64,000 nucleotides of DNA, taken from Acetobacteraceae bacterium (GTDB lineage Bacteria; Pseudomonadota; Alphaproteobacteria; Acetobacterales; Acetobacteraceae). Below, piece after piece: positions 2,221 to 55,701 of this stretch; the first letter of the stretch is position 1; each line of letters begins with the position of its first letter. The position numbers and the translations under genes are program-made. The notes beneath the pieces were generated by a model, which worked only from the letters and a program-made list of their open reading frames with translations, ran no database searches and was not told the DNA's origin. The DNA is taken from positions 10,922 to 74,921 of the forward strand of contig JBIKOJ010000002.1 in assembly GCA_044358135.1 (NCBI GenBank). Reading direction: 5' to 3'.

Positions 2221-2670
2221 GTGGCGCACCCGCCCGAGGACACGTCGCCAGACCCGATCCCGCTGCTGGAGGAGCACGCCCGCATCACCACGCGCGACGT
2301 CGTCACCGGCCGCGTCCAGGTCCGCCTCGCCACCGAGGAGGTGGAGGATGTGGTCCACGCCACCCTTGCCGGCCGCCGCGCCACCGTCGAGCGCATCGCG
2401 ATGGATATCGAAGTCACCGAAGCCCCCGCCGTACGCCAGGAGGGCGACACCATCGTCGTGCCGGTGGTGGAGGAGGTGCTGGTGGTGGAACGCCGCCTGC
2501 GCCTGCGCGAGGAAATCCGCCTTCACCTCGTCCCCACGCAGGAGGAGGTCGCACTGCCGGTGCGCCGGCGCGTCCAGCACGCGGAGGTGCATCGCCTCCA
2601 CGGCACACCGCCGGCGGACGACCCCACCCCGTCCCGTGCCGGAAAAGGCTATCAGGAGAACCACGAATGA
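2221..2670 (+). CDS. YsnF/AvaK (DUF2382) domain stress protein, small
   Basis: Two DUF2382-like repeats (IPLLEEHARITTRDVVTGRVQVR; VPVVEEVLVVERRLRLREEIRL). GTG at 2221 has an AAGGA SD 6 nt upstream. The track ORF starts at GTG 2191. Confidence 0.8.
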   Translation: MAHPPEDTSPDPIPLLEEHARITTRDVVTGRVQVRLATEEVEDVVHATLAGRRATVERIAMDIEVTEAPAVRQEGDTIVVPVVEEVLVVERRLRLREEIRLHLVPTQEEVALPVRRRVQHAEVHRLHGTPPADDPTPSRAGKGYQENHE

Positions 2671-3797
2671 CCCGCATGATCACCGCGATGTTCGATACCC
2701 GCGCCGAAGCCGATGCCGCCGCCGACCACCTGGCCCGCGACATCGGCATCCAGCGCTCCGCCGTGCAGGTCCATGGCGGCGAGGCAGCCGCAGGAACGTC
2801 GCGCACCCCCGCCAGCGCCGCCGCCGGGGCCGAGGATGTCGGCTTCTGGAGCGCGCTGCGCGACCTCTTCGTGCCCGACGAAGACCGCCCGACCTACGCC
2901 GAGGGCATCCGCCGCGGCAGCTTCCTCGTGACCGCCGAAGTGGACGACACCGCGGTGGATCGCGCCATGGACCTGCTGGAATCCCACGGCGCCGTGGACC
3001 TGGACACGCGCGAGGCGCAGTGGCGTGCCGGCGGCTGGTCCGGCCAGGAGAGCATGGGCACCGGCACCGTCGCCTCCCTGCCCACCTCGCCCGAACTCGG
3101 CGTGGCCGGCACCACCCGTGAGACGATCACCGAACGCCCCGGCGGCGCCGGCGGCGACTTCACCACCAACCCCGCCCCGGGCCAAATGGACAGCGCGTCC
3201 GATGCCACCCGCCGCACCGGCACGGCCGGCACCACCACGGGCCGCACCACCGACGAAGTGATCCCGGTGGTGGAGGAGCACATCCAGATCGGCAAGCGCG
3301 ACGTGGAGCGCGGCCGCGTCCGCGTGCGCTCCTACATCGTCGAACGCCCCGTCAGTGAGCAGGTCACCCTGCGCGGCGAGCACGTGGAAGTGCAGCGCCG
3401 CCGCGTGGACCGCCCCGCCACCGCCAACGACGACCTGTTCCGCGAACGCACCATCGAGGCGGTGGAACGCGGCGAGGAAGCGGTGGTGGCGAAGGAAACC
3501 CGCGTCACGGAGGAGGTTGTGCTGCGCAAGGATGCCACCGAGCGCACCGAAACCGTCACAGACACCGTCCGCCACACCGAGGTGAAGGTGGAAGACGACA
3601 CCACCACCAAGGGCACCCACACCGATGCCCGCCTCGGCACCCGCCACGGCTCCGCGCCAGACGGCACCCCCGGCAACCCGCCCGGCACCATGGCCAGCCG
3701 CGGGATGGACAAGACGCTGGGCACCAACGTCAGCGGCGCCAACCCGCAGGGCGAAAACCTCGCCAGCCGCGCCAAGGACAAGACCACCAAGCCGTAA
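2667..3797 (+). CDS. General-stress protein with N-terminal GsiB/17M-like domain and C-terminal YsnF/AvaK (DUF2382) domain
   Basis: ATG 2667 overlaps the upstream TGA (ATGA). Motif IPVVEEHIQIGKRDVERGRVRVRSYIVERPV...VTLRGEHVEVQRRRVDRP. The Arg/Pro-rich 5' part of track ORF 2076.. is discarded. Confidence 0.85.
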   Translation: MTRMITAMFDTRAEADAAADHLARDIGIQRSAVQVHGGEAAAGTSRTPASAAAGAEDVGFWSALRDLFVPDEDRPTYAEGIRRGSFLVTAEVDDTAVDRAMDLLESHGAVDLDTREAQWRAGGWSGQESMGTGTVASLPTSPELGVAGTTRETITERPGGAGGDFTTNPAPGQMDSASDATRRTGTAGTTTGRTTDEVIPVVEEHIQIGKRDVERGRVRVRSYIVERPVSEQVTLRGEHVEVQRRRVDRPATANDDLFRERTIEAVERGEEAVVAKETRVTEEVVLRKDATERTETVTDTVRHTEVKVEDDTTTKGTHTDARLGTRHGSAPDGTPGNPPGTMASRGMDKTLGTNVSGANPQGENLASRAKDKTTKP

Positions 3798-3896
3798 TCA
3801 TCCCCCCACGGCAAGGGAACCATGAAGGCGAGGCCGGCATTGCCGGTCTCGTCGGCGTTTCAACCCGCGTAGCAACGCGAAACCGGAGTGCGCAGC

Positions 3897-4316
3897 ATGA
3901 GCGACAACAAATCCCAGGGCAGTGCCGGCAGCGCGCTCGGCGCCCACAGCAAGGACAGCCCGCAAGGCCAGGGCGCGTCCTCCGCCGCCTCCGGCACGAT
4001 GGGCCAGCACGGCGGCAGCCAGTCCTCGGGCGTCAGCCAGGGCGACGGCAAGAAGGATCGCCGCGACGAATCGTCCTCCGACAACTGGCAGCAGGCCGGC
4101 GCCGAGATGGCCGGCCAGGCCAAGGAAGGCATGGAACGCGTCGCCAACACCGTGCGCGACGCCGCCAGCACCGCCCGCGACACCATCGCCACCCGCGGCA
4201 GCCAGGCCATGGAAAGCACCGGCCAGATGGTGCGCGACCAACCCATGACAGCGCTGGCCGTCACCGGGCTGGCCTGCTTCGCCATCGGCATGATGATCGG
4301 GCGTGGGCGCTACTAA
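3897..4316 (+). CDS. DUF883 (ElaB/YqjD-like) membrane-anchored stress protein
   Basis: ATG 3897 lies 8 nt after GGAG. Hydrophilic Q/S/G-rich body plus a C-terminal anchor PMTALAVTGLACFAIGMMIGRGRY. Confidence 0.8.
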   Translation: MSDNKSQGSAGSALGAHSKDSPQGQGASSAASGTMGQHGGSQSSGVSQGDGKKDRRDESSSDNWQQAGAEMAGQAKEGMERVANTVRDAASTARDTIATRGSQAMESTGQMVRDQPMTALAVTGLACFAIGMMIGRGRY

Positions 4317-4450
4317 GCAAGGACTCTTCTTTTTCTGAAGAAAAAGAAGCAAAAAGACTTTTCTGAATGGCACCCGTCTCTCCAAGGAGAGGCGGGTGCA
4401 AGTTTCAAAAGTTTTTTGGTTCTTTTTTTCAAAAAAGAACCGCTTCCTTA
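4317..4450 (+). repeat. Composite intergenic element, copy E1 (A-hairpin / GC hairpin / B-hairpin)
   Basis: A hairpin: CTTCTTTTTC-TGAA-GAAAAAGAAG (4326-4349). Central hairpin: GCACCCGTCTCTCC..GGAGAGGCGGGTGC. B hairpin: GGTTCTTTTTT-TC-AAAAAAGAACC (4418-4441). Abuts the stops of both convergent genes. Confidence 0.9.
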
Positions 4451-5659
4451 CACTAAGGCGCGCTGCAAACTCTCCACCAGCCGGTCCACTTCCTCCAGCG
4501 TATTGTAGTGCACCATGGAGGCCCGGACCACGCCGTTGCCCTCCAGCAGCCCCAGCCGCTCCACCAGGCGGCGCGAGTGGAAATCCCCGAAGCGGATGCC
4601 GATCGGGTCCTGGTCCACCGCTGCCACGATCGCTGCGGAGTCCTTCCCCGCCACCTTGAAGGCGATCGTCGGCACCCGCACCGCCGCGTCCGAGGTCCGC
4701 TCGCCGATCACCCGGATATCGTTGCGGCTGCGCAGGAAGCCCAGCAGCCGCTCCGCCAGCGCCGCCTCATGCGCCGCGATATCGCCAAAGCCACGCTCCA
4801 GCGCCGCGCGCCCGGTACCGCCGCCCAGCCCTTCCAGGTAGTCCACGATCCCCGCCGCCCCCCAGGCCGCCTCGTAGCTCGGGTTGCCCGGCTCCAGCTT
4901 GGCCGGCACTTTCTCGCGCCCGTAGAACCAGTGGTACAGCCCGTCCAGCTCCAGCAGCTTGTCGTGCTTGCCGTACATCACCGCGAAATGCGGCCCGTAC
5001 GTCTTGTAGAAGCTGAAGATGTAGTAATCCACGTCCCAGCCCGCCACATCCAGCGCCCGATGCGGCGCATAGGCCACCGCATCCACCACCAGCTCCGCCC
5101 CCGCCGCATGCACCCGCCGCGCGATCTCCGCCACCGGCATGATCGTGCCCAGGATGTTGGAGGCATGGGTCACCGCCACCAGCCGCGTGCGCGGCCCCAG
5201 CAGCGCATCAAGGTCCGCCAGGTCCGGCCGCATCGTCTCGGGGTTGATGCGCCACTCCCGCACCACCACGCCCGCCTTCTCCAGCGCGCGCCACGGCCCG
5301 ATGTTCGATTCGTGGTCGAAATCCGTCACCACCACCTCGTCGCCCGGCTTCAGGCGGCCGGCCATGGCCTTGGCCAGGAACTGCGCCAGCACCGTGGTGG
5401 AAGGCCCGAACACCACCTCCTCCGGCCGCCGCGCGCCGATCCACGTCGCCACCCGCGCCCGCGCCTCCGCCAGCCGGGCCGAGGCGCGCTGCGAATGGGC
5501 ATAGCTCGCGCCCGTCTGCACGCTGGTGGTCAGCAGGTAGTCGGCCACCCGCTCCGCCACCCCGCGCAGCACCAGCGATCCGCCGGCATTGTCGAAATAG
5601 GCAAACCCGTCGGCCAGCGCCGGGAAGCAGGAACGCACATGGGCAAGATCAAGCGGCAT
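4448..5659 (-). CDS. Aminotransferase class V / cysteine desulfurase-like PLP enzyme
   Basis: 403 aa from ATG 5659 (AAGGA SD). Class-V features THASNILG and FSFYKTYGP. High GC3. Confidence 0.9.
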   Translation of the reverse strand: MPLDLAHVRSCFPALADGFAYFDNAGGSLVLRGVAERVADYLLTTSVQTGASYAHSQRASARLAEARARVATWIGARRPEEVVFGPSTTVLAQFLAKAMAGRLKPGDEVVVTDFDHESNIGPWRALEKAGVVVREWRINPETMRPDLADLDALLGPRTRLVAVTHASNILGTIMPVAEIARRVHAAGAELVVDAVAYAPHRALDVAGWDVDYYIFSFYKTYGPHFAVMYGKHDKLLELDGLYHWFYGREKVPAKLEPGNPSYEAAWGAAGIVDYLEGLGGGTGRAALERGFGDIAAHEAALAERLLGFLRSRNDIRVIGERTSDAAVRVPTIAFKVAGKDSAAIVAAVDQDPIGIRFGDFHSRRLVERLGLLEGNGVVRASMVHYNTLEEVDRLVESLQRALV

Positions 5660-7155: not shown

Positions 7156-7938
7156 ATGACCGCAAGCTGGCAGAACCAGGTCGCTCTCGTCACCGGCGGC
7201 GCCCGCGGCATCGGCCGCGCCACAATCCGCCGCCTCGCCGCCGCGGGCTGCGCCGTGGCCATCAACTACACCACCCGGCCCGATGCCGCCGAGGAACTCG
7301 CCGCCGAGGTGAAATCCGCCGGCGCCCGCGCCATCACCGTGGGCGCCGACGTGGCCGACCAGGCCGCCGTCCAGGCCATGGTCGCCCGCACGGAAGCCGA
7401 GCTCGGCCCGCTCACCATCCTGGTCAACAACGCCGGCATCGGCTGGCCCGCCACGCTGGAAAGCTGGGAGCCCGAAGGCTTTGCCCGCCTGCGTGCCGTC
7501 AACGTGGATGGCGTCATCCACGGCGTGCGCGCCGTCATGGCCGGCATGAAGGCCCGCCGCTACGGCCGCATCGTCAACATCTCCTCGGTCGCCTCCTTCG
7601 GCAATACCGGCTTCGTCGGCAACCACTTCTATGCCTCCACCAAGGCCGAAGTGAACCTGCTCACCCGCCGCTTCGCCTACGAGCTGGGCCAGCACGGCAT
7701 CACCGTGAACGCCGTCGCCCCCGGCCTCACCCGCTCCGACATGACGCAAGGCAAGCGCAGCGCCGAGGAATGGGCCGAAACCACCGCCGCCTTCAGCAAA
7801 ATCACCATCCTCGGCCGCGTCGGCGAACCCGACGAAATCGCCGCCGCCGTGGCGTTCCTCGCCTCGCCCGATGCAAGTTTCGTCACGGCGCAAGTGCTGA
7901 CGGCGGATGGGGGGCGGACAGACTACATCGGGCACTGA
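7156..7938 (+). CDS. SDR family oxidoreductase (3-oxoacyl-ACP reductase-like)
   Basis: TGGARGIG Rossmann motif, NNAG, and S...YxxxK (YASTKAEV). Confidence 0.92.
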   Translation: MTASWQNQVALVTGGARGIGRATIRRLAAAGCAVAINYTTRPDAAEELAAEVKSAGARAITVGADVADQAAVQAMVARTEAELGPLTILVNNAGIGWPATLESWEPEGFARLRAVNVDGVIHGVRAVMAGMKARRYGRIVNISSVASFGNTGFVGNHFYASTKAEVNLLTRRFAYELGQHGITVNAVAPGLTRSDMTQGKRSAEEWAETTAAFSKITILGRVGEPDEIAAAVAFLASPDASFVTAQVLTADGGRTDYIGH

Positions 7939-8096
7939 AAGAAAGCGGTTCTTTTTTGAAAAAAAGAACCAAAAAACTTTTATGACTACGCGGCTGAACC
8001 ACCCGGTCTTCCTCACGGAGGACCGGGCGCTCCGCAGCGCAGACGAATAAAGTCTTTTTGCTTCTTTTTCTTCAGAAAAAGAAGACCTTCCTTGCT
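7939..8096 (-). repeat. Composite intergenic element, copy E2 (inverted orientation)
   Basis: B' GGTTCTTTTTTGAAAAAAAGAACC, then GC hairpins (CCCGGTC..GACCGGG; GCGC..GCGC), then A' CTTCTTTTTCTTCAGAAAAAGAAG. Starts directly after the TGA of the SDR gene. Confidence 0.9.
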
Positions 8097-15525: not shown

Positions 15526-16241
15526 ACATGGTGGTGAGCCGCGAGGAATGGCGCGCGGCGCGGATGGCGTTGCTGGAGCAGGAGAAGGCGCTGACGCGGG
15601 CCCGCGATGCGCTGAACGCGGCGCGCGTGGCGCTGCCCTGGGTGAAGGTGGAGAAGCCATACCGCTTCCATACGGAGCGCGGGCCGGAGACACTGGCAGA
15701 CCTGTTCCGCGGGCGCGGCCAGCTGCTGGTGCAGCATTTCATGTTCGGGCCGGACTGGACCGAGGGCTGCGTGGGCTGCTCGCTGTGGGCCGACCATGTG
15801 AGCGCCGCGCTGCCGCACCTGGCGGCGAAGGATGTGACCTTCGTCGCGGTGTCGCGCGCGCCGCTGGAGACGCTGCTGGCGTTCCGCCAGCGGATGGGCT
15901 GGGCGTTCGACTGGGTGTCGTCGCTCGACAGCGATTTCAACCGCGATTTCGGGGTGACGTTCACGGCGGAGGATATGGCCGCGGGGGCGGAGTACAACTG
16001 GCGGCCGGTGCAGGAGACCGGCGAATTGCCGGGGAACAGCAGCTTCTACCGGGATGCCGGCGGGGCGGTGTTCCATACCTACTCCGCCTATGGGCGCGGG
16101 GCGGAAGAGATCGCCTCCACCTACATGCTGCTGGACATTGCGCCGCTGGGGCGCAACGAAAGCGGGCCGCAGCCGATGGCCTGGGTGCGGCACCATGACC
16201 GCTACGCGGAATCGCAGGCCGGGAGCTGTTGCTGCACGTGA
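15522..16241 (+). CDS. DUF899 thioredoxin-like protein
   Basis: ATGA overlap. Motif QLLVQHFMFGPDWTEGCVGCS...RMGWAFDWVSS..DFNRDFGV. Confidence 0.85.
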   Translation: MNMVVSREEWRAARMALLEQEKALTRARDALNAARVALPWVKVEKPYRFHTERGPETLADLFRGRGQLLVQHFMFGPDWTEGCVGCSLWADHVSAALPHLAAKDVTFVAVSRAPLETLLAFRQRMGWAFDWVSSLDSDFNRDFGVTFTAEDMAAGAEYNWRPVQETGELPGNSSFYRDAGGAVFHTYSAYGRGAEEIASTYMLLDIAPLGRNESGPQPMAWVRHHDRYAESQAGSCCCT

Positions 16242-16849
16242 AGACCGTCATTGCTCTGCTCGGCCTGCTGGCCGCGACCTCCCCCGCGCTGGCGCAGGAC
16301 AAGCCCTGCACCGCGCCGCCGGTGCGCAGCCTGCTGCCGGGCGGGCCGGGCTATGTCTATCCGGAGCTGAAGACGCAAACCCTGGTGCTGGGCCAGGGCG
16401 CGGCGCGGGTGCAATGGCTGGCGGCAAGCTGGTTCGGGCCGATGAACGGGCGGCTGATGGCGTTGGATTGCGCGGGCAAGGCGCTGGGTTCGGTGGAGTC
16501 CGGCTATCTGCGGTCGATGAAGCCGGGGCCGGCGGTGCCGGGGGTGGGGGCCACCGTGCTGGTGGAGGCGACCACGGGCACCGGCACCGGATATCGCCAG
16601 GACATGGTGCGGCTGGTGGCGCTGGTGGACGGGGCGGCGAAGGTGCTGTGGGAGCAGGTGTCCCTCACCAAGGACAGTGCCCAGCGCGGGCATGGCTCCG
16701 AGGAGCGGTTTGCCTGGCGCTTCGCCCCTGATGGCACCCGCATCGAGGTGACCGGCACGCGCCAGCAGGACGGCAAGCCGGGGCGGGCCGCCCTGCCGGG
16801 GGCGAGCTTCTGCTGGAAGGCGGGGGAAAGGGCGTTCGGGGGGTGCTAA
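16229..16849 (+). CDS. Secreted hypothetical protein
   Basis: Signal peptide VIALLGLLAATSPALAQ. The likely start is GTG 16238, overlapping the upstream TGA (GTGA). The track gives TTG 16229. Confidence 0.65.
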   Translation: MLHVKTVIALLGLLAATSPALAQDKPCTAPPVRSLLPGGPGYVYPELKTQTLVLGQGAARVQWLAASWFGPMNGRLMALDCAGKALGSVESGYLRSMKPGPAVPGVGATVLVEATTGTGTGYRQDMVRLVALVDGAAKVLWEQVSLTKDSAQRGHGSEERFAWRFAPDGTRIEVTGTRQQDGKPGRAALPGASFCWKAGERAFGGC

Positions 16850-16981
16850 GGAAGAAAGGCGTTCTTTTTTGAAAAAAAGAACCAAAAAACCGTTCCATGC
16901 TTGATGCGGCCCTGCCGCATCAAGCCACAAAAGTCTTTTTGCTTCTTTTTCTTCAGAAAAAGAAGAATCCTTGCTTTCTTC
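16850..16981 (-). repeat. Composite intergenic element, copy E3
   Basis: B' hairpin, perfect central hairpin GCTTGATGCGG-ccctg-CCGCATCAAGC, then A' hairpin. Bounded by the TAA of the left gene and the TAG of the right (minus-strand) gene. Confidence 0.9.
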
Positions 16982-18679
16982 CTACCGCCCCGGCACCAGC
17001 GCCTGCACCCGCCCGGCCAACACCCCCAGCGTGAACGGCTTGTGCAGCAACTGCGCGCCTTCGGGCAGCGGCCGGCCGGGGCCGAGGGCGGTGCCGGCGT
17101 AGCCGGTGATCAGCAGGATGGGCAGGGCGGGGTGCAGGGCGCGGGCGGCTTCGGCCAGTTGGCGGCCGTTCATGCCGCCAGGCAGGCCGATATCGGCCAC
17201 CAGGATATCCGGCGCGGGGCCGGCGCGCAGCTTCTCCAGCCCCTCTGCCCCGCTGGCGGCCTGCTGCACCTGCCAGCCGAGGTCGCGCAGGGCCTCCGCC
17301 AGGGCGTCGCGCACCTGGGGCTCGTCATCCACCAGCAGGGCGCGCGGGACGTGCGGGCGGGGCGGGGCGGTGGGGATCGCCACGGCGGGGACCGGGGCGG
17401 CGTCGTCGCGCGCGCAGGGCAGATAGAGATGGAAGATTGCGCCCTGGCCCGGGGCGCTGACGGCGCGCAGCACGCCGCCGGACTGGGCGACAAAGCCCCA
17501 GACCTGGGACAGGCCGAGCCCGGTGCCGCGGCCGGCCGGCTTGGTGGTGAAGAACGGATCGAAGGCGCGGGCGAGCACATCCTCCGACATGCCCATGCCG
17601 GTATCGGCCATGGTGATGCAGACGAAGCGGCCAGGGCGCGCCGCGGCGAAGCCGACCAGTTGCGCGGTGGCCAGGTCCATGGTCTCGATGGACACGGTGA
17701 GGGTCCCACAGCCGCGCGGCAGCATGGCGTCGCGTGCGTTGAGGGCGAGGTTGACCAGCGCGCTTTCCAGCTGCTCCCGGTCGCACAGCATCGCCGCGCA
17801 GCCGGGATCGGGGCTCAGCGCCACGGCGATGTCCGGCCCCACCGTCTGGCGCAGCAGGCCGGCAATGTCGTGGAGCAGGGTGCAGGGATCGACGGGCTGG
17901 GGCAGCAGGGTCTGGCGGCGGGAGAAGGCGAGCAGGCGCTGGGTGAGGCTGGCGGCGCGGTCGATGCCGCGCAGTACGGCGTCGAGGTAGCGCAGCGCGT
18001 CCTCCGGCCGGTTCTGCGCCAGGCGGCGGCGCATCAGCTCGATCCCGCTCGCGAAGCCCTGGAGCATGTTGTTGAAGTCGTGCGCGATTCCGCCGGTGAG
18101 CTGGCCGATGGCCTGCATCTTCTGCGCATGGCGCAGCGCATCCTCCGCATGCTCGCGTTCGGCGATCAGCTCGCGCAGGCGCAGGTTGGCCTCATCCGCG
18201 GCGCGCAGGCGCAGCTTGTGCTGGGTGAGGTCGGTAAGCACGCCGCAGAGCAGCTTGCCGCCATCGGCGCCGGCGAGCGGGTTGAGGGAGGCGAAGATGG
18301 GCACCTCCACGCCGTCGGTGCGCTGCAGGGTGAGCTCGCCGCGGCAGCCGATGCGGCCGGCCTGGGCGAGCAGGCGGCGCCAGGCGGGGCCGTCGCGCGG
18401 GACCATGAAGTCGGCGAGGTCCTGGCCGACCACCCGGTCGGGCGGGAGGCCCAGCAGCTCCGCCACGCGGCGGTTGGCGTAGGACAGCACGCCGTCTGGG
18501 GAGAGGGTGACCGCGCCTTCCTGCATCTGCTCGATAAGGTGGCGGAAGGGGGGATCGGGCACCACCGAGGGAAGGGGCGCGGCGGTTGCCGTCTCTGCCG
18601 GCGGCGGGCGCGGGCGCGCCGCTGCGGCGGGATCGGCCGTGGGCGTGGCGCACAACGGCATGTCAGTTCCCCGACTCAT
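16982..18679 (-). CDS. Hybrid sensor histidine kinase/response regulator (PAS-HisKA-HATPase-REC)
   Basis: H-box GGIAHDFNNML, N/G boxes (DTGMGM, GTGLGLS) and a C-terminal REC (LLVDDE...DIGLPGGMNG). The start is uncertain: ATG 18679 or 18661, with the track ORF reaching 18865. Confidence 0.88.
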   Translation of the reverse strand: MSRGTDMPLCATPTADPAAAARPRPPPAETATAAPLPSVVPDPPFRHLIEQMQEGAVTLSPDGVLSYANRRVAELLGLPPDRVVGQDLADFMVPRDGPAWRRLLAQAGRIGCRGELTLQRTDGVEVPIFASLNPLAGADGGKLLCGVLTDLTQHKLRLRAADEANLRLRELIAEREHAEDALRHAQKMQAIGQLTGGIAHDFNNMLQGFASGIELMRRRLAQNRPEDALRYLDAVLRGIDRAASLTQRLLAFSRRQTLLPQPVDPCTLLHDIAGLLRQTVGPDIAVALSPDPGCAAMLCDREQLESALVNLALNARDAMLPRGCGTLTVSIETMDLATAQLVGFAAARPGRFVCITMADTGMGMSEDVLARAFDPFFTTKPAGRGTGLGLSQVWGFVAQSGGVLRAVSAPGQGAIFHLYLPCARDDAAPVPAVAIPTAPPRPHVPRALLVDDEPQVRDALAEALRDLGWQVQQAASGAEGLEKLRAGPAPDILVADIGLPGGMNGRQLAEAARALHPALPILLITGYAGTALGPGRPLPEGAQLLHKPFTLGVLAGRVQALVPGR

Positions 18680-18978: not shown

Positions 18979-19464
18979 TCAGGCCGCCAGGGCCGTGCGG
19001 TTGACGGTGACGGCCATCTGGTTGAGCAGCGTGTCGGTCTTCTTCTCCTCGTCCAGGGTTTCCTGCAGGAGCTGGGCGATCTGTTCGTTGCCGAGTGCCT
19101 TGGCCCAGGCAACCAGGGCGCCGTAGCGCGCCATCTCGTAGTGCTCCACGGCCTGGGCCGTGGCGATCAGCCCGGCATCGCGCACCGGGGAGGGCTGGGG
19201 CGACATTTCCAGCAGCTCCTCGCTTTCCTCCATCAGGCCGTTGATCGCCTCGCAGGTCTTGCCCTGGGCGCGCTTGCCGACGATCTCGAAGACCTGGCGC
19301 AGGCGATCAACCTGCTGCTCCGTCTCCTCGCGGTGGTGCATGAAGGCTTCGCGCAGCTTCGGGTCGGACGCAGCCTTGGCGAGCTTGGGCAGCGCCTTCA
19401 GGATCTGGCGTTCGGCGAAGAAGATGTCCTTCAGGGTATCGAGAAACAGGTCTTCCAGGCGCAT
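18979..19464 (-). CDS. DUF892 (YciF/YciE-like) ferritin-like stress protein
   Basis: ATG 19464 lies 6 nt after GGAG. Motif LEDLFLDTLKDIFFAERQILKALPK...HHREETEQQVDRL...AVEHYEMARYGALVAWA. Confidence 0.85.
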   Translation of the reverse strand: MRLEDLFLDTLKDIFFAERQILKALPKLAKAASDPKLREAFMHHREETEQQVDRLRQVFEIVGKRAQGKTCEAINGLMEESEELLEMSPQPSPVRDAGLIATAQAVEHYEMARYGALVAWAKALGNEQIAQLLQETLDEEKKTDTLLNQMAVTVNRTALAA

Positions 19465-19496
19465 GGCGTGCTCCATTGGTTGCCGTTGGCCTTGGC

Positions 19497-19555: not shown

Positions 19556-19701
19556 GAAGGAAAGCAAGGATGTTCTTTTTTGAAAAAAAGAACCAAAAAA
19601 CTTTCATCCCTTTGCACCGCATCCATCCGGGAGGGATGGGTGCAAAGGGATAAAGTCTTTTTGCTTCTTTTTCTTCAGAAAAAGAAGATTGCTTTCTTCC
19701 C
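19556..19701 (-). repeat. Composite intergenic element, copy E4
   Basis: B' hairpin, nested central hairpin ATCCCTTTGCACC...GGTGCAAAGGGAT, then A' hairpin. The right end abuts the TAA of the amidase gene. Confidence 0.9.
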
Positions 19702-21090
19702 TTACCCCAAATCCGGCATCGGGAAAGGCTGGGCCACCTCGATCGCCCGGGCGGCGCGCAGGACCATGTCGTCGCGGTACAGGGCGCCGGCGAGCTGGAT
19801 CGAGCGGGGCAGGCCGTTGGGGGAGAAGCCCATCGGTACCGTGATCGCCGGCTGGCGGGTGAGGTTGGCGAAGGCCGTCCAGGGTGCCCAGCTGGACCAC
19901 AGGGCCTCCACCGGGTTGTGCGTGCCGGCCTCGGCCAGCGGGGGCGGGTTGGGGACGGTGGGGCTCAGGATCAGGTCGTAGCGCTGCATGAAGCGGGCCA
20001 TGCGGTGGGCGGCCTGGATGCGGCTGGCCTCGAACTCCATGAAGTCCTCGGCGGAAAGACCCTTGTTGGCGGCGGCAACCTCCAGCAGGCCGGGGTCCAG
20101 CATGTGGCGGCGGGTTTCCGGGAAGGAGTGCACGAGGCGGGTGAGCGCGATGCCCCAGACGCGGCTGAAGATGGCGCGGGTATCGGGCAGGCCGGGATCG
20201 GCTTCCTCCACTTCCGCGCCGAGATCCTGCAGCAGCTGGGCGGCCTGTTCCACGGCGGCGATGCTCTCCCAATCCACCGGGGCATCGAAGCCCGGGCGGC
20301 GCATGACGGCGACCTTGAGGCCGGCGATGCCCTGCTCGATGCCGTCGCGCCGGTCCCGGTTGTCGTCCGGCAGGCTGTAGGGGTCGCGCAGGTCGTGGCG
20401 GCCGATCACGTTCAGCATCAGGGCGCAGTCGCGCACGGTGCGGGTCATCGGGCCGGCGACGGCCACCGCGGCGAAGGCGCCGAGCGGCCATTGCGGCACG
20501 CGGCCGAAGGTCGGTTTCAGGCCCACCACGCCGCACCAGGCGGCGGGCAGGCGGATGGAGCCGCCGGCATCGGTGCCCAGGTGCAACGCACCGAAGCCGG
20601 CCGCCGCGGCAGCCCCGGCCCCGGCGGAGCTGCCGCCCGGGGTGTGGTGGAAGTTCCAGGGGTTGCGGGTGATGCCGTGCAGCGGGCAGTCGCCGGGGGT
20701 TTTCCAGCCGAACTCGGTGGTGGTGGTCTTGCCGACGATCACCGCCCCGGCGCTGCGCAGCGCCATGGCGATCGGCGCGTCCTCCGCCGCCGCGGCGGTG
20801 TCGGACAGGCGGGAGCCGCGGCGGGTGGGCAGGCCGGCGACGTCCACCAAATCCTTGATGGTGACGGGCACGCCATCCAGCTTGCCGATCGGACGGCCGG
20901 CGCGCCAGCGGGCCGCACTCTCGCCGGCCTGGGCCAGGGAGTGCGGGTTCATCACCGCGAAGGCGTTGATGCTGGGGTTGAGGCGGGCCACGCGCTCGGT
21001 CACGGCCTGCAGCACCTCCACCGGGGAGAGGGCGGTGCGGGCATAGGCGGCGAGCAGTTCCTCGGCCGTCATCTGCGTGGGGTCGGACAT
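19702..21090 (-). CDS. Amidase (amidase-signature family)
   Basis: ATG 21090 with an AGGAG SD. Signature GGSSAGAGAAAAAG...GTDAGGSIRLPA. Confidence 0.92.
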   Translation of the reverse strand: MSDPTQMTAEELLAAYARTALSPVEVLQAVTERVARLNPSINAFAVMNPHSLAQAGESAARWRAGRPIGKLDGVPVTIKDLVDVAGLPTRRGSRLSDTAAAAEDAPIAMALRSAGAVIVGKTTTTEFGWKTPGDCPLHGITRNPWNFHHTPGGSSAGAGAAAAAGFGALHLGTDAGGSIRLPAAWCGVVGLKPTFGRVPQWPLGAFAAVAVAGPMTRTVRDCALMLNVIGRHDLRDPYSLPDDNRDRRDGIEQGIAGLKVAVMRRPGFDAPVDWESIAAVEQAAQLLQDLGAEVEEADPGLPDTRAIFSRVWGIALTRLVHSFPETRRHMLDPGLLEVAAANKGLSAEDFMEFEASRIQAAHRMARFMQRYDLILSPTVPNPPPLAEAGTHNPVEALWSSWAPWTAFANLTRQPAITVPMGFSPNGLPRSIQLAGALYRDDMVLRAARAIEVAQPFPMPDLG

Positions 21091-22814: not shown

Positions 22815-25800
22815 TCACTGGCGGGTCGGCGGGACAGGCGGGCAGGCGCGCTCGGGGAAGAAGCCGAGGATCGGGACGGCGTAGCCCCGGCGCAGCTCGA
22901 TGCGCTGGCCTTCGTCGGTCCAGCGCAGCAGGCGAAGGCATTCGTGGCGGTACTCGGTCCAGAGCGAACTGAGGGCGAAGACGCCGAGATAGCCCAGCGA
23001 CTCGCCGGTTTCGGCGTTCCAGGCATCGGTGTGACCGCCGGCGCGTTGCGCCAGGACGAGGCGGTTGTCGTGGCTGAAGTATGTTCGGGTAAGGTCGCTG
23101 AGTGTGGCGGCAGTGAGCAGCGATGCCGTTCCAGCTGAGTGGTCGAGGCGCCAGAGCTCGAACCGGTCGCGGGCGTCGGCACGGACGACAACTGCGCGAT
23201 CGTAGGACTGGGAGAACTGGAGTTCGTCGTTCGATCCCACGCGCAACCCGGCAGCCGCAATGGGTTGGGAGCGCGATTTTGGCCAGACCATCAGATGCCC
23301 GAGGCTCTCATGTGCCCAACTGACATGGGGCGCGCCGCTCCAGTAAGTCGTTCGCGGCGAAGGCCCGAACGGCGTGATCGCATCGCCGAAGCGGCCCACG
23401 GCTAGGTCGAGCGGCCACAGCATATCTCCGACCGGTCGATAGTGGATGAACATCAGCGTGCTGGCACCCGAGAGGTAGGCCCAATCGACACTCACGGTCG
23501 GGGCACCTGGCTGCCCGCGCCCTGTTCCGGCAAGAATGGGGAGTGCGGGGTCGGTCGGTACATGACGGGGTGCAGACACATCGAAACCCGGTGCATCTCC
23601 CTTGGGTCGGTAGCGAATATCCGTGATCGCGATGCTGCCGTCCTGCTTCGACACGACGAGCCACGCCAACTCAGGCTCGGCACCGTGGCCGAACAGGCCG
23701 AGCAGGCGATCGCCATCCGCCAGTTCGCGCTTCAGGACGGTCTTGCCTGTTTGCGGAGACATGAGAACGAGAGTGAGCGTTTCGTCACCCACGAGGACCC
23801 ATCCGCGAAGATAACGGGCAGCAAAAGGACTCCGCTCAACCCCTCCGCCGAAACCGTCTTGTTTCTTCCTTTCAACCGTTTCACTCCAGAATATCCCAGC
23901 GTTATTCTGGAAATTTATTCCAATCCAATTGCCATAATTCACGCCTTCGACTTCGAATTCTATGATATTCGGATCCTTATAATGATCATTATATTGCGCC
24001 GGACTAGAAATCCTTGGCAAGGCCAATAGCCCCCCGAGACGGTACGCGGGATCCGGGTCAATGCGTCTCTCAACATTGGATTTCGGATCCCATCCAACCA
24101 TCCCTTCATGCGGTGCACCGGACCAAAGCGTATCGGAGCGATGGTATCGGAAGAAGCGTTCCCGACGCAGGTGAAGTCTGGCGCCGGAGTCCAGGCTCCA
24201 CACCGACGAGGGGAACTGTTCATTATTCGAGTGGGCGGCGACCATCAGCAGGTGGCGCTCGCTGGCGGCGCCGAAAGGTGTCACGGAAAGGCTATAGGCG
24301 GAACGCCCCGGTTGACCGTCCCAATGGCTGCCCGGCGGATCGACAGGCTGCCACCGGCGCTCCGTCGCAAGAGCGAGAACCCCAACAGTGGCCAAGGTGC
24401 CGATGGCCAGGGTGGTAAGGGCCGGGCGGCCGTAGCCGTACAGCAGGCTGCGCCGCAAAATGGTGCGGGCCTCGGCACGCTGGAGCAGCGCCGGCGGGGC
24501 GTGGCGGCGGATGGTGCGCAGGTTGGCCAACGGGATCAGCTTGCGGCGGCCGGCGCGGATCTCGGCGAGATGGAACTCTAGCTCGTTGGCCGCCGATTCC
24601 GCCTGCGTCGACTGCTCCTCGGTGGCAATGCGGATCGGCTGGACCAGATAGTCGTGAATCAGCGACCAGGCGCGCGACCCGGCAGCGTTGGTGGCAACAA
24701 CCACTCGGCCCTGTTCCAGAAGCTCCATTACGCCGGCCACCTGCGCCTCGGTGACCCTCGGCCCGGGGGCCCCTTCGCGGGCGCGGGCGGCGAGATCGGC
24801 GGCGGCCTGCGGCTGCGGCACCTTCTTGTTGGCCGGCATGTCGCAGAGCTGGCGCAGCAACGCGCGGGTAAGCACCGGCTCGCCGGTGGCTTCGATGATG
24901 GTGCGCAGGTACCGCGAGCGCAGGCCGGGGGCACCGCCCTGGCGGCGGTAGTGGTCGACGGTCAGGGTTCCGTGCAGGGCGCCGCAGACCACCTGGAGGT
25001 CGGCGGGGCGGACCGTGTCCTCCACTGCAAGGTCGCGCGCGATCAGCCCCGGCAGCGCGTCGTCGAGAACCAGCCCGTCGCGCCCGGCGCACTCGCGGAT
25101 CACGTCCTGCGCTTCGCCGGCGGTGAAGTTCGCCACCGCAACCGTGTCCTGCAGGGCGATGCCGGCCGGCAGGCGGGCGGCAACCTCACGCATGTCGGCC
25201 AGGAACTCCTTGCGCATGCCGATCACCAGGCGAACCGGTCGCGCCATCAGGTCGGCCAACAGGGCGCCAAGGGCTTCGCGTTCTGCCGGGGCGCGGAAGC
25301 GCGTCAATGGCTCCTCGAACTGGTCAAGGATCAGGAAGGCGTGCTTGCCGGCTGCCGGCACGAGGGCATCGGCGCTGCGGCGCAGCTCGGCCAGAGTTGC
25401 GGCAAAAGCGTCGGCCGCGGACTGGCCTGGGGTTGGCCGGGCGAAGCGGTACACCAGCGCCGCGGCATGCCCGTCGCGGCGCAGCGCGGCGAGCAGGCCG
25501 CATTCCAGCTGCGAACTCTTGCCGGCGCCGCTTTCGCCGTGCACGACCATGATCGCGCGGTCCGGCTCCAATGCAAGCCGCGCCAGTTCGGCGGTGGCAC
25601 TGCGGCGCTGCGCGCCCGGCAGGGTGTCGCCTTCGCGAAACCGGCTCAGGCCGCGAAAGGCGAGCCCCTCGCGCGCCTGGGGGGCAAGGGCCTCGCGGGC
25701 CTCGGTGCGCACGGCCTCGCGGCTGCGCCGCCGGGCAAGAAGGTAGACGGTCGCCCCAAGCCCGACGGCGAGGAGCGCCCCCGCGACAATCGGGGCCCAT

Positions 25801-30439: not shown

Positions 30440-31177
30440 ATGAGCGACGCCATCCGCGTGAGCGGCCTGACCAAGCGCTACGGGGACACCCTGGCTGTCG
30501 ACGACGTTTCCTTCGCCGCCGCGCGCGGGCAGACGATCGGGCTGCTGGGCGGCAACGGCGCGGGCAAGACCACCACCATCGCCATGCTGATGGGGCTGCT
30601 GATCCCCACCGCCGGCAGCATCCACGTGCTGGGCCACGACATGGCGCGCGACCGCTTCGCGGCCCTGGCGCGGATGAACTTCTCCTCGCCCTACGTGGCG
30701 CTCCCTGCCCGCCTGTCCGTCGCCGAGAACCTGCGCGTGTACGGCCATCTCTACGGCGTGCGCGGGCTGGAGGCGCGCATCCGCGAGGTGGCGGCGGAGC
30801 TGGACCTGGTGGACCTGCTGGAACGCCCGGCGGGTCAGCTTTCCGCCGGGCAGAAGACGCGGGTGGCGCTGGCGAAATCGTTGATCAACCGGCCGGAACT
30901 GCTGCTGCTCGACGAGCCCACGGCGAGCCTGGACCCCGATACCGGGGACATGGTGCGCAGCTGGCTGGAACGCTACCGGGCGGCGAGCGGCTGCACGATC
31001 CTGCTGGCGAGCCACAACATGGCCGAGGTGGAGCGCATGTGCTCCCACGTGGTGATGCTGAAACAGGGCCGCATCGTGGACCAGGGCAGCCCCGGGGACC
31101 TGCTGGCACGGTATGGGCGGGATGACCTGGAGCAGGTGTTCCTGGACATCGCCCGGAACCGGAGGGAGTCGAAGTGA
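30440..31177 (+). CDS. ABC transporter ATP-binding protein (ABC-2 exporter type)
   Basis: Walker A GGNGAGKTT, signature LSAGQKTR, Walker B LLLLDEPT. Confidence 0.92.
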   Translation: MSDAIRVSGLTKRYGDTLAVDDVSFAAARGQTIGLLGGNGAGKTTTIAMLMGLLIPTAGSIHVLGHDMARDRFAALARMNFSSPYVALPARLSVAENLRVYGHLYGVRGLEARIREVAAELDLVDLLERPAGQLSAGQKTRVALAKSLINRPELLLLDEPTASLDPDTGDMVRSWLERYRAASGCTILLASHNMAEVERMCSHVVMLKQGRIVDQGSPGDLLARYGRDDLEQVFLDIARNRRESK

Positions 31178-31286
31178 AGAATTCTTCTTTTTGTGAACAA
31201 AAAGAAGCAAAAAAACTTTATTACCTGGCACGCGTGCAAGGTGATAAAAGTTTTTTGGTTCTTTTTTTCAAAAAAGAACCGCTTTC
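31178..31286 (+). repeat. Composite intergenic element, copy E5 (shortest; central hairpin reduced to GGCACGCGTGC core)
   Basis: A-variant CTTCTTTTTGTGAACAAAAAGAAG, then CCTGGCACGCGTGCAAGG, then B GGTTCTTTTTTTCAAAAAAGAACC. It fills the whole gap between the ATPase and permease genes. Confidence 0.9.
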
Positions 31287-31289
31287 TTG

Positions 31290-32087
31290 ATGTCCTCCCT
31301 CCGCCGCATCTGGGGCCTGATGTACCGCCATCTCGCCCTCTATCGCCGCTCCTGGCCGAGGCTGCTGGAGCTCACCTACTGGCCCACGCTGCAGATGTGC
31401 ATCTGGGGCTTCACCTCCAGCTTCATCGCCAGCCGCATGGGCGTGGGCGGGCAGCTGGCGGCCGGGCTGCTGCTGGGCGGGGTGCTGCTGTGGGAGGTGG
31501 CGCTGCGCAGCCAGATGGGCGCGGCGATCTCCTTCCTGGAGGAGATCTGGTCGCGCAACCTGGGCCATGTCTTCGTCTCCCCCTTGCGCCCGTGGGAGCT
31601 GGTGGCGGCGCTGATCGCGATGAGTGCCATCCGCATGGCGATCGGCGTGCTGCCGGCGGTGCTGCTGGCCTGGGGGCTGTATGCCTTCAACCTGTTCGCG
31701 CTGGGGCCGGTGCTGATCCTGTTCACGATCAACCTGATGATGATGGGCTGGTGGATCGCGCTGGGCGTGATCTCCCTGATCCTGCGCCATGGCGCGGGGG
31801 CGGAGGCGCTGGCCTGGTCGGTGCTGTTCGGCATCACGCCGTTTGCCGCGGTGTTCTATCCCGTGAGCGTGCTGCCCACCGTGCTGCAGCCGGTGGCGCT
31901 GGCCCTGCCGGCGGCGCATGTGTTCGAGGGGATGCGCGCGGCACTGGACAGCGGCGTGCTGCGCTGGGACCACCTGGCCTGGGCAGCGGCGCTGAACCTC
32001 GCCTGGGCCGCGGCGGCCGTGCTGCTGTTCGCCCGCCAGTTCCGCGTTGCGCGCGAGCGCGGCGCCCTGCTTTCGATCGGAGAGTAA
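31290..32087 (+). CDS. ABC-2 type transporter permease
   Basis: Six hydrophobic helices. Partner of the upstream ATPase. ATG 31290, with the track's TTG at 31287. No SD; the 5' flank is the repeat element. Confidence 0.88.
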   Translation: MSSLRRIWGLMYRHLALYRRSWPRLLELTYWPTLQMCIWGFTSSFIASRMGVGGQLAAGLLLGGVLLWEVALRSQMGAAISFLEEIWSRNLGHVFVSPLRPWELVAALIAMSAIRMAIGVLPAVLLAWGLYAFNLFALGPVLILFTINLMMMGWWIALGVISLILRHGAGAEALAWSVLFGITPFAAVFYPVSVLPTVLQPVALALPAAHVFEGMRAALDSGVLRWDHLAWAAALNLAWAAAAVLLFARQFRVARERGALLSIGE

Positions 32088-42405: not shown

Positions 42406-42530
42406 GGCAAGGCTGGGCTCTGCCCAGACCCGCCAGGGGCCGAGCCCCTGGACCTCATCCTCTTCAATGAATGGGATCAAAGGGCCGCCGGCCCTTTGCG
42501 GGTCCAGGGCAGAGCCCTGGCCTTCCTTCG
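42406..42530. repeat. GC-rich inverted-repeat element, family C copy C1
   Basis: Left arm AAGGCAAGGCTGGGCTCTGCCCAGACCCGC against right arm GCGGGTCCAGGGCAGAGCCCTGGCCTTCCTT. Inner hairpins CAGGGGC-cga-GCCCCTG and CAAAGGGCC-gcc-GGCCCTTTG. Starts at the mutY TAA. Confidence 0.8.
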
Positions 42531-42547
42531 GCTCTATCAGTCAGAGC

Positions 42548-55565: not shown

Positions 55566-55701
55566 GAAGAGTCTTCTTTTTTCTGAAGAAAAAAGAAGCA
55601 AAAAAGACTTCCTGACCTTGCGCGCGTGCCGGCCACCCAGCACGCGTGCAAGGTCATAAAAGTTTTTTGGTTCTTTTTTTCAAAAATGAACCGCTTGCCT
55701 T
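55566..55701 (+). repeat. Composite intergenic element, copy E6
   Basis: A hairpin, 17-bp central stem TGACCTTGCGCGCGTGC...GCACGCGTGCAAGGTCA (1 mismatch), B-variant GGTTCTTTTTTTCAAAAATGAACC. Bounded by the TAG and TAA of the convergent genes. Confidence 0.9.

Follow-up and report, generated by a model that had tools for sequence, protein, structure and literature searches.

The 64,000-nucleotide stretch of Acetobacteraceae DNA analysed here, which we call the window, contains at positions 4317 to 4450 a palindromic element that lies between two convergent genes and adjoins the TAA stop codons of both. It belongs to a dispersed repeat family. A preliminary description had placed eight copies in the window, in both orientations, and our arm searches and alignment agree with it: reading and aligning every copy gave seven full elements and one that retains arm B only, in both orientations, within 64 kb (Table 1). 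Arm B, GGTTCTTTTTTTCAAAAAAGAACC, was matched at eight sites with at most three mismatches and arm A, CTTCTTTTTCTGAAGAAAAAGAAG, at six, with no match to either in shuffled sequences. A seventh arm A, that of the copy at 55566, was missed by the ungapped search because its T- and A-runs are one base longer; it was seen by reading the sequence.

Table 1. Copies of the repeat in the window, with strand, gene context and component parts (window coordinates).
Copy	Strand	Gene context	Parts
4317..4450 (full)	+	convergent genes: 3888-4316 (+) / aminotransferase 4448-5659 (-)	outer flank 4317-4325; arm A hairpin 4326-4349; A-run/CTTT tract 4350-4362; GC hairpin ~4363-4406; AAAG/T-run tract 4407-4417; arm B hairpin 4418-4441; outer flank 4442-4447
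7939..8096 (full)	-	3' of short-chain dehydrogenase gene 7156-7938 (+)	arm B 7947-7970; tract to 7980; long centre 7981-8049; tract from 8050; arm A 8061-8084
16850..16981 (full)	-	convergent genes: 16229-16849 (+) / PAS histidine kinase 16982-18565 (-)	arm B 16860-16883; centre 16894-16930; arm A 16942-16965
19556..19701 (full)	-	tandem minus-strand genes: amidase 19702-21090, DUF892 18979-19476	arm B 19571-19594; centre 19605-19652; arm A 19664-19687
31178..31286 (full)	+	within ABC-transporter pair: ATPase 30440-31177, ABC-2 permease 31290-32087	arm A variant CTTCTTTTTGTGAACAAAAAGAAG 31184-31207; centre 31219-31246 (shortest); arm B 31257-31280
55566..55701 (full)	+	convergent flavin-monooxygenase-like genes: 53919-55565 (+) / 55700-57496 (-)	arm A (longer runs) 55573-55598; centre ~55611-55658; arm B 55669-55692, 1 mismatch
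58966..59047 (half)	+	adjoins TAA stop of HpcH/HpaI-like gene 59046-59795 (-)	centre remnant 58966-59000; AAAG/T-run tract 59001-59010; arm B 59011-59034; outer flank
63540..63676 (full)	+	convergent genes: 62238-63539 (+) / 63675-63998.. (-)	arm A 63548-63571; 16-bp GC hairpin in 63583-63631; arm B 63642-63665

As a whole the element is a palindrome, typically about 130 nt long, with a range of roughly 110 to 160 nt. A full copy runs from a short purine-rich flank through an arm, an A-run with CTTT, a GC hairpin of variable sequence, and AAAG with a T-run, to a second arm and its flank. Each arm is an AT-rich, self-complementary sequence of the form (C/G)TTC-T5-7-TGAA/TTCA-A5-7-GAA(G/C), which on its own makes a perfect 10-bp hairpin. 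The two arms are inverted relative to each other and usually comprise one of the CTTC type and one of the GTTC type; the distance between them has its mode at 68-70 nt among 96 full copies, and the ~13 nt outside each arm follow a weaker consensus, GAAS-N-S-CTT-N-CYT. When arm A with its tract is set against the reverse complement of arm B with its tract, the inverted match covers about 45 nt and is perfect in some copies (e.g. L045 and L046). To that extent the arms are terminal inverted repeats, as first described, but what evolution keeps is the pairing within each arm, rather than that between the two arms.

The AT-richness ascribed to the arms was borne out by a scan of the window for islands of at least 70% AT per 30 nt: all are element arms, except two at 23890-23997, in a genome of 65-76% GC. 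The recurrent peptides of the open reading frame track are, as supposed, mere translations of the arms. The open reading frame at 60339-63539 had no homologues in a protein search and is probably spurious.

Folded as RNA, the full copies in the window have minimum free energies of -39.9 to -69.1 kcal/mol, with z-scores of -5.6 to -9.2 against shuffles. The copy at 31178 lies at one end of the energy range (-39.9 kcal/mol, z -5.7) and that at 63540 at the other (-69.1 kcal/mol, z -9.2); the copy at 4317 has -60.3 kcal/mol (z -7.8). Folding as DNA gave z-scores of -8.8 and -9.9 against shuffles, and the centre alone gave a median z of -4.2 across 93 copies. The minimum-energy structures include a cloverleaf-like four-way fold, to which a long-hairpin fold is nearly equal in stability.

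The family is apparently undescribed, and the preliminary description had likewise failed to recognise it. Rfam returned no match in the window at the gathering threshold, and in E-value mode only generic hairpins (miRNA precursors) at no more than 29 bits, against gathering scores of 37-245 bits; ARAGORN found no tRNA or tmRNA. Literature searches with the sequence itself and for REPIN, MITE and REP in Acetobacteraceae genera found no description of the family. Further copies do occur in relatives. We found the repeat in at least 118 genomic stretches, nearly all from Acetobacteraceae, including Gluconacetobacter, Acidiphilium, Roseomonas, Pseudoroseomonas and many metagenome-assembled genomes (MAGs), with one copy in every 8-10 kb or so. 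Sequences of relatives totalling 132 kb, which had been retrieved by protein homology and independently of the repeat, held 15 full or half copies, or about one per 9 kb. The repeat was present in viral contigs in 37 stretches, and also in a prophage. In pL11-B of Pseudoroseomonas cervicalis, which is cultured and annotated, an unannotated copy occupies the gap between convergent genes. A plasmid BLAST gave just two Pseudoroseomonas records, a search in which low-complexity filtering probably masks the arms.

Copies are concentrated at gene ends. At least one gene end precedes 55 of the 60 copies for which both flanks could be called (92%), in 27 convergent, 28 tandem and 5 divergent contexts, which agrees with the proposed location between convergent or tandem gene ends. 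In the window, half of the ten convergent junctions hold a copy, and four of the five remaining junctions have gaps of just 4-54 nt. The exceptions to this placement are the five divergent contexts and the intra-operon copy in the ABC transporter (31178). Placed between the two genes of that transporter, ATPase and permease, a strong terminator would do harm, and between divergent genes it would serve no purpose.

Bidirectional intrinsic (Rho-independent) terminators consist of an A-run, a GC-rich hairpin and a T-run, and lie between convergent genes or after a gene. The repeat resembles them in its position at gene ends and in its layout, with an A-run and CTT on the 5' side and AAAG and a T-run on the 3' side, the T-run directly following the hairpin base on both strands, in 165 of 186 strand-directions. 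The preliminary description had called the centre exactly a bidirectional terminator. Its layout is that of one, but it is not canonical: the T-run stands 7-13 nt from the GC stem and meets the hairpin only via a weak, conserved CTTT/AAAG lower stem, so that the stem has an AU-rich base and an internal loop before its GC portion. This is why a simple terminator scan does not call the element centres. Unlike ordinary intrinsic terminators, moreover, the core forms part of a repeat that is dispersed and has additional hairpins on its flanks, and some copies of the repeat are intra-operon or divergent. A weak lower stem followed by a T-run on either strand nevertheless amounts to the core geometry of a bidirectional intrinsic terminator, and termination in both directions is the activity we would predict from the sequence.

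The idea that tandem or operon centres are weaker was not upheld, as no difference in centre stability was found between convergent and tandem contexts. Among tandem copies the sense strand folds more stably in 13 and less stably in 15, and each strand has 58 G.U pairs; orientation relative to transcription is also without bias (12 versus 9). Given this lack of strand asymmetry and of orientation bias, there is no specific sign of selection on the RNA, an idea that we set aside.

The arms show a clear signature of base pairing. Among 343 arms, which were detected without using the stem ends, the outer 4-mers are perfectly complementary in 314; shuffles averaged 161 such arms and never exceeded 183. 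Complementarity extends over several types: GTTC/GAAC (208 of 216), CTTC/GAAG (89 of 95), GTCC/GGAC (7 of 9) and CTGC/GCAG (5 of 5). The arms keep their own pairing via double changes, of which the compensated C>G/G>C pair change in arm A of the copy at 31178 is an example. They also evolve far more slowly than the neighbouring genes: in orthologous copies, arms and tracts are identical at 349 of 352 positions (99%), compared with 226 of 292 in the centre cores (77%) and 1330 of 1500 in flanking DNA (89%). The copy at 7939 has orthologues in L126, L129 and L130 with 70/70 identical positions in arms and tracts, 53-58/67 in the centre and 267-274/300 in the flanks. A near-invariant arm sequence is common to different genera. 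Changes in the centre are compensatory; at its base, the centre stem of the copy at 55566 differs from that of its orthologue in L132 by three pair changes (GAC/GTC to TCA/TGA), each fully compensated. The constraint on the arms may stem from host function or from homogenisation among copies: gene conversion among ~500 copies, rather than function, could keep them nearly invariant.

Comparison of orthologous sites shows that copies are both retained and lost or gained. The comparison that the preliminary description had proposed shows presence/absence polymorphism among close relatives, at five sites between relatives with 84-96% protein identity. The copy at 4317 has an intact orthologue in L130, and in L129 its arm A is precisely deleted between AAGCAA direct repeats, as expected for slippage over a hairpin. 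At the 16850 site the element is missing from L126, L129 and L130, which carry additional genes there (Hint_2, 366 aa). Here the element provides the TAA stop of the left gene, which ends in TGC TAA immediately before GGAAG in the window and in TGC GGC TGA/TAG in the relatives. L129 has the gene order of the 19556 site without the copy, whose position is taken by ~200 nt of unrelated GC-rich sequence that includes a perfect hairpin of 16 bp; in L126 the site holds an additional gene (367 aa). L133 lacks the copy at 55566. At the junction that matches the half copy at 58966, L132 carries a whole element, and ~580 nt of other sequence replace arm A in the window, which indicates that the half copy descended from a full element.

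At each site without a copy, either the spacer has been swapped for unrelated sequence or gene content has changed. With no clean empty site, gain and loss could be recombinational and not transpositional. The earlier argument that shared orthologous copies speak against mobility is too simple, as old copies persist with near-invariant arms and copies are also gained and lost. Two observations resemble amplification. A terminase-encoding phage region (L145) holds two copies 5.5 kb apart that are 100% identical over ~122 nt and have unrelated flanks, and centre subfamilies are genome-specific, with a median centre identity of 0.70 within OZ240673 against a background of ~0.55.

We favour, with a probability of roughly 0.55, the reading that the repeat is a REPIN/MITE-like non-autonomous element, specific to the Acetobacteraceae, with a bidirectional terminator core, and that it is selectively retained. 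On this model the arms would form hairpins in single-stranded nucleic acid and be recognised by whatever copies the element. Copies would survive almost solely at gene 3' ends, where the core may stop transcription from both sides and shield mRNA 3' ends. A copy, once fixed, would be kept for long, with its arms near-invariant and its centre constrained just to pair. Such an element unites two things that are usually treated apart, a dispersed and probably mobile palindromic repeat and the design of a bidirectional terminator.

A bolder proposal, which we advance tentatively, is that the arms are more than transposon ends, namely the recognition hairpins of an ancient, vertically inherited partnership, spanning the family, with a putative host-encoded enzyme or DNA-binding factor other than a RAYT. 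The element might then be a replicator of a new class that persists within genomes, or might punctuate the genome as a terminator plus a topological site, selection on each copy having kept its arms almost unchanged across Acetobacteraceae genera.

The arms could instead serve the host directly at the DNA level, a reading we regard as unlikely. The AT palindromes would be protein-binding or cruciform sites where transcription converges, used by a nucleoid-associated protein, gyrase or a GapR-like factor, and would punctuate supercoiling or chromosomal domains, as proposed for E. coli BIMEs, and spread by recombination. BIMEs, and the RIMEs of Rhizobium/Sinorhizobium, are mosaic intergenic elements of several palindromes at operon ends, and BIMEs have been suggested to serve gyrase, IHF and Pol I as sites of action. 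The present repeat shares the mosaic of palindromic modules with them but no sequence relationship, and its modules are AT-rich. Consistent with a host site are the arms' near-invariance across genera and at orthologous sites while neighbouring genes diverge, their standing as the AT-rich islands of a window of ~70% GC (bar the two noted above), the symmetry of the copies, their independence of orientation, their lack of strand asymmetry and their enrichment at convergent junctions; that gene content often differs where a relative lacks the element also fits recombinational turnover. Covariation in the arms, however, indicates base pairing over protein contacts, although a cruciform would satisfy it too; the identical phage copies and genome-specific centre subfamilies resemble amplification, and our analysis yielded no candidate protein.

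A further alternative is a true REPIN, whose arms would be REPs mobilised by a single-copy RAYT (an HUH Y1 transposase) and inherited vertically as in Pseudomonas and enterobacteria. REPINs are paired inverted palindromes at fixed spacing, extragenic, present in hundreds per genome and often at convergent gene ends; single palindromes are their decay products, and they persist for long, with vertical inheritance and no target-site duplication (Bertels & Rainey 2011, PMC3116915; PMC3337134). The present family is like them in its inverted palindromes at a tight modal spacing, extragenic position, frequent siting at convergent gene ends, high copy number, long and vertically inherited persistence at orthologous sites and lack of a visible target-site duplication, and many single arms resemble decay products. 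It differs in having AT-rich arms in a 70% GC genome, arms within one copy that are usually of unlike type (CTTC and GTTC), a GC hairpin with terminator tails in the spacer, and an exact arm sequence common across genera. One end of a REP palindrome bears a conserved tag of four nucleotides, GTAG or CGTC, and CGTC repeats are stated to be missing from Acetobacteraceae (PMC3733652); neither tag is present in the arm consensus or flanks here.

RAYTs do exist in the family: tblastn with E. coli RayT found one, 50% identical, at 2587-3081 of L025. This gene, the sole one met and in a single genome, is flanked by perfect inverted, GC-rich, GTAG-tagged REPs (2513-2543 and 3140-3170) that are unrelated to the AT-rich arms, and so the suggestion of a RAYT as cognate enzyme fails for it, as it belongs to a separate GTAG REP system. 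Across ~1 Mb of sampled loci no RAYT-like open reading frame recurs beside the arms, and the IS630-like or other cognate transposase that had been envisaged was not found. An all-versus-all comparison of open reading frames from 118 loci returned only ABC ATPases and other paralogous families as recurrent neighbours, and the open reading frames between distant inward-facing arm pairs, where an autonomous parent might lie, are ordinary genes (again in ~1 Mb of sampled loci). We consider a RAYT-driven REPIN unlikely. Other HUH-mobilised elements, such as the palindrome-associated elements (PATEs) derived from IS200/IS605, are defined by hairpins, have differing ends and make no target-site duplication. 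The repeat resembles PATEs in its hairpin ends, the difference between left and right hairpins and the lack of duplication, but it has no conserved target tetranucleotide at one end, TnpA/TnpB was not found, and it is globally palindromic.

Less probable still is a cut-and-paste MITE of the classical kind, descended from a DDE insertion sequence such as an IS630/Tc1-like element that duplicates TA. The long terminal inverted repeats (~45 nt), small size and high copy number would suit it, as would the TA-containing stop codons at the edges of many copies; a TAA stop closes 7 of 13 element-adjacent genes, compared with 6 of 46 other genes (p=0.004). The TA duplication hinted at by the adjoining TAA/TAG stops is, however, ruled out by the boundaries of identical copies and by relatives: neither of the two L145 copies is bounded by a direct repeat, comparison with relatives shows no duplication at the boundaries of 16850 and 19556, one TAA/TAG belonging to the flank, and TGA-bounded copies occur. 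In the sampled DNA there was no parent insertion sequence with such ends. Of the earlier idea of a MITE- or REP-like mobile element there remain the inverted arms, the copy number and the polymorphism, but neither a target-site duplication nor a cognate transposase. The MITEs of other bacteria are similar in part. Correia (CREE/NEMIS, Neisseria), ERIC/IRU, RUP and BOX-type elements are ~100-160 bp long and intergenic, with terminal inverted repeats and long hairpins, and are co-transcribed with their neighbours, with reported effects on termination and mRNA stability. Correia elements have a TA duplication, an IHF site and outward promoters, none of which was seen here. Whereas those families are confined to the level of the genus, the present repeat spans a taxonomic family, and each of its terminal repeats is a perfect hairpin kept by covariation.

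Least probable is a structured RNA, either a small RNA or a 3'-UTR cis-regulatory cloverleaf acting in the transcript, for although the cloverleaf-like fold, the compensatory changes that keep pairing and the copies directly 3' of stop codons would fit one, the long hairpin is almost as stable, strand and orientation are unbiased relative to transcription, no promoter-like site was found, Rfam gave only generic hairpins far below threshold, and ~500 copies per genome are atypical of a regulatory RNA. Recombination sites were also considered. The attC sites of integrons lie in one orientation, 3' of consecutive cassettes beside an integrase, with RYYYAAC/GTTRRRY cores; they are ruled out by the occurrence of both orientations, the housekeeping genes around the copies and arm ends that read GTTCTTT, not GTTRRRY. 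Xer/dif-like and invertase (hix-like 12-2-12) sites are disfavoured by the stem covariation, which signifies base pairing, and no recombinase was found.

With a copy every 8-10 kb or so, this family would make up roughly 1-1.5% of such genomes and tag a large proportion of gene ends, yet it is unannotated. Its copies provide stop codons and alter the 3' ends of genes, and they may seed spurious open reading frames. Metagenome assemblies are broken by the repeat, with contigs ending within copies; two contigs (L123 and L124) both terminate within the copy at 16850. The arm sequence is a simple taxonomic marker of Acetobacteraceae DNA in metagenomes. The repeat also offers a way to a putative factor that recognises AT-rich hairpins in this GC-rich alphaproteobacterial family, to which industrial acetic acid bacteria belong. 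Its unusually sharp pattern of constraint makes it a good system in which to ask whether repeats of this kind live as parasites, have been domesticated as punctuation, or combine the two.

The AT-armed family is a bacterial interspersed palindromic repeat. Reading and aligning every copy upheld the eight copies of the preliminary description, in both orientations: seven full (starting at 4317, 7939, 16850, 19556, 31178, 55566 and 63540) and one, at 58966, consisting of arm B only. A search of the window for the arm palindromes gave eight sites for arm B, GGTTCTTTTTTTCAAAAAAGAACC, and six for arm A, CTTCTTTTTCTGAAGAAAAAGAAG, against 0 for either in dinucleotide-preserving shuffles. A seventh arm A (55573-55598), seen by eye, was missed by the ungapped search because its T/A runs are one base longer. 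GC content across the window is 65-76%, and every AT-rich island is an element arm, bar two at 23890-23997. As RNA, full copies fold far more stably than shuffled sequences (z -5.6 to -9.2), and DNA folding gives z -8.8 and -9.9; a cloverleaf with each arm folded on itself is about as stable as a single long hairpin. The repeat is real and non-trivial.

The outermost part of a copy is a purine-rich flank (consensus ...AAGNAAGSN) that fades about 13 nt beyond the arm. The arm is a perfect 10-bp hairpin, (C/G)TTC-T5-7 pairing with A5-7-GAA(G/C) around a TGAA or TTCA loop. Inward lie an A-run, (G)ACTTT and a GC-rich hairpin that varies in both sequence and length; beyond it the order is mirrored: AAAG, T-run, second arm and outer flank. 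Most copies combine one CTTC-type and one GTTC-type arm, and arm-to-arm distance peaks sharply at 68-70 nt, with a wider range among the window copies. When arms were picked by T-run, A-run and inner tract only, their outer 4-mers were perfectly complementary in 314 of 343, compared with a mean of 161 and a maximum of 183 after random re-pairing of left and right halves. Some minority outer pairs need a two-sided change (GTCC/GGAC, CTGC/GCAG, TTAC/GTAA, GCGC/GCGC), and the window arm at 31184-31207 has undergone a compensated C>G/G>C substitution beside its loop. Where arm A and the arm B reverse complement disagree, each arm compensates the change internally; thus, the preserved pairing is intra-arm. 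The 4317 copy in the relative L129 shows a precise deletion of arm A, bounded by two AAGCAA direct repeats, the mark that slippage across a hairpin leaves and an illustration of how half copies originate. Two other carrier stretches have back-to-back arms, an outward-facing arm followed at once by the inward-facing arm of the next unit (L011:2173-2215, L011:4244-4298 and L095:6043-6100), so whole or half elements can directly adjoin one another head to tail.

Orthologous copies, taken from genomes with 78-95% identity in the flanking DNA, are conserved in a pattern opposite to that of a decaying repeat. Arms and inner tracts are identical at 349 of 352 positions, flanks at 1330 of 1500 (88.7%) and centre cores at 226 of 292 (77%). 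Changes in these centres preserve pairing; at the stem foot of the 55566 copy, all three base pairs differ on both sides between the window and L132 (GAC/GTC to TCA/TGA). The median folding z of the centre, taken over 93 copies, is -4.2. Centre-core identity within the window's genome, 0.53, is no more than background, so the window copies are old; a value of 0.70 within the metagenome-assembled genome (MAG) OZ240673 indicates a subfamily amplified more recently in some other genomes.

The inner tracts form a 4-5-bp CTTT/AAAG stem at the foot of the centre hairpin, with an A-run before it and a T-run directly after it in 165 of 186 strand-directions, both strands alike. Judged by its sequence, this layout is that of a putative bidirectional intrinsic terminator. 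An internal loop and the weak stem part the strong GC stem from the T-run, and a simple scanner did not call the centres as terminators. Nothing in folding stability, G.U counts or orientation pointed to selection acting on the RNA in particular. Between tandem genes the two strands fold equally well, the sense strand having the greater stability in 13 copies and the lesser in 15, and each strand has 58 G.U pairs; element orientation is unrelated to transcription direction (12 against 9). Such strand symmetry is predicted for a two-way terminator and equally for a function at the DNA level. The main alternative is a host DNA-level site; it and a mobile element that carries a terminator core are not mutually exclusive.

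Among 60 full copies with both flanking genes strand-assigned, 27 are convergent, 28 tandem and 5 divergent. Copies occupy five of the window's ten convergent junctions; four of the remaining five have gaps of 4-54 nt, and the tenth, at 42403-42548, holds a different, GC-rich palindrome instead. Elements take up the whole gap between genes and sit directly against stop codons. TAA ends 7 of 13 element-adjacent genes versus 6 of 46 others (Fisher p=0.004), and the 16850 copy itself provides a gene's stop (window ..TGC TAA|GGAAG versus ..TGC GGC TGA/TAG in relatives). The copy with the shortest centre, 31178, lies between ABC transporter ATPase and permease genes.

Presence of the element varies among relatives. 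At the 19556 site, L129 keeps the gene order with an unrelated GC-rich spacer bearing a 16-bp perfect hairpin, and L126 has an extra gene in place of the element; at the 16850 site, relatives have extra genes and lack it. Both sites (16850-16981 and 19556-19701) are hot spots of gene-content change relative to L126, L129 and L130, and relatives carry Hint_2-domain genes or an uncharacterised 366-367-aa gene exactly there. Upstream of a TPP-enzyme gene, L127 has a full copy, L126, L128 and L130 a partial or full one, and the window none. A metallophosphatase/hydrolase junction holds the element in L128 and a GC-rich hairpin in L126, L129 and L130; the 55566 copy is absent from L133. None of these cases is a clean filled/empty pair, and they are thus silent on insertion chemistry. 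The best evidence for copying comes from the viral contig L145, which has a gene for a large terminase subunit and, within a 6-kb stretch, three copies of the element. Over about 122 nt, CTTCTTTTTC... to ...AAAAAAGAACGA, two of these copies show 100% identity; their flanks are unrelated, and neither is bordered by a direct repeat. Three related prophage-like IMG/VR contigs from isolate genomes (L140, L147, L162) have in common a solo arm B with a conserved AT-rich stretch (GGGAGTATTCCTAAAAATCCATAG...) about 90 nt upstream of it, apparently an orthologous half copy carried by a phage lineage.

The preliminary description was largely right on architecture and plausible function; its suggested transposase types, IS630-like or RAYT (REP-associated tyrosine transposase), proved wrong as far as could be tested. 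In the sampled arm-carrying loci, no protein family recurs beside arms and no transposase-like gene is bounded by inward-facing arms. A RAYT gene 50% identical to E. coli RayT does occur in a carrier, L025 (PKZM01000204.1, Acetobacteraceae MAG bog_908), at 2587-3081. It is flanked (2513-3170) by GTAG-tagged GC-rich REPs, GTAGGGTGGGGTGCTCTTCCGCACCCCACCC, in perfect inverted orientation, and we rejected it as the mobiliser because these mark a separate system. The locus shows that at least one genome of the Acetobacteraceae has a GTAG REP/RAYT system of the classical kind; a third, diverged GTAG REP (3548-3576) adjoins a solo AT-rich arm. Because its ends are hairpin-defined, its arms unlike and duplication absent, the element is most reminiscent of HUH-type mobilisation (IS200/IS605 or RAYT-like), a suggestion drawn from resemblance.

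A scan for the 22-nt arm core in one genome per species found at least 118 stretches, nearly all from Acetobacteraceae or 'Rhodospirillales' MAGs, with others in Gluconacetobacter liquefaciens, G. tumulicola, Acidiphilium sp. PA and Roseomonas sp. GC11. Most of the matches listed have the same three-part architecture, and their arm A variants are always self-complementary. In Pseudoroseomonas cervicalis replicons, the element fills, unannotated, the gap between convergent oxidoreductase genes. The window organism, an uncultured Acetobacteraceae lineage, has matches of 99.5-100% identity in several metagenomes. Two independent metagenome assemblies of it (L123 and L124) end at window position 16885, in the 16850 copy and inside its arm, where a repeat would be expected to stop them, and the closest relatives of the 55700-57496 protein lie mostly on 2-7 kb contigs; both fit the idea that the repeat breaks assemblies. 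Over 132 kb of relatives' DNA obtained through a neighbouring protein, and so unbiased toward the repeat, full copies number 11 and half copies 4. This density agrees with the window's 8 per 64 kb and implies that a genome carries several hundred copies.

Other palindromes and open reading frames seen in the window
Feature	Position	Strand	Remarks
Second palindromic element, GC-rich, low-copy	42403-42548		At gene ends
Second palindromic element, GC-rich, low-copy	58378-58470		At gene ends
Large ORF, about 1040-1080 aa	22815-25943	minus	Window's lowest-GC part (0.65)
1066-aa ORF	60339-63539		Probably a spurious GC-rich open frame over two real genes
Real gene	60490-62229
Real gene	62238-63539

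The second palindrome reads TAAGGCAAGGC-(T/C)(A)GGGGCTCTGCCC...GGGCAGAGCCCTGGCCTTCCTT and shares the purine-rich outer flank motif with the AT-armed family. Similar GC-only hairpins with like flanks replace the AT-armed element in L129 (about 19200-19440), and those at the metallophosphatase/hydrolase junction of L126, L129 and L130 have such flanks too. The large minus-strand ORF contains the window's only non-arm AT-rich islands and may be a recently acquired gene. The 1066-aa ORF has no homologue at E<=1e-150 among 5.8 billion proteins.

Neither Rfam nor literature searches returned a match to or description of the element. Unlike a classical MITE, the family lacks a target-site duplication, and unlike a REPIN (paired inverted REPs) it lacks the tag and, in the one genome where a RAYT was found, an association with that RAYT. 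In its working it is closest to a REPIN or a Correia/ERIC-type MITE, with a putative terminator role in addition. Three things set it apart: AT-rich arms that pair with themselves although the genome is GC-rich, an arm sequence invariant across the family, and a predicted built-in bidirectional terminator core. We give somewhat better than even odds, about 0.55, to the combined explanation that the AT-armed family is a mobile palindromic element with a terminator core, retained by selection.
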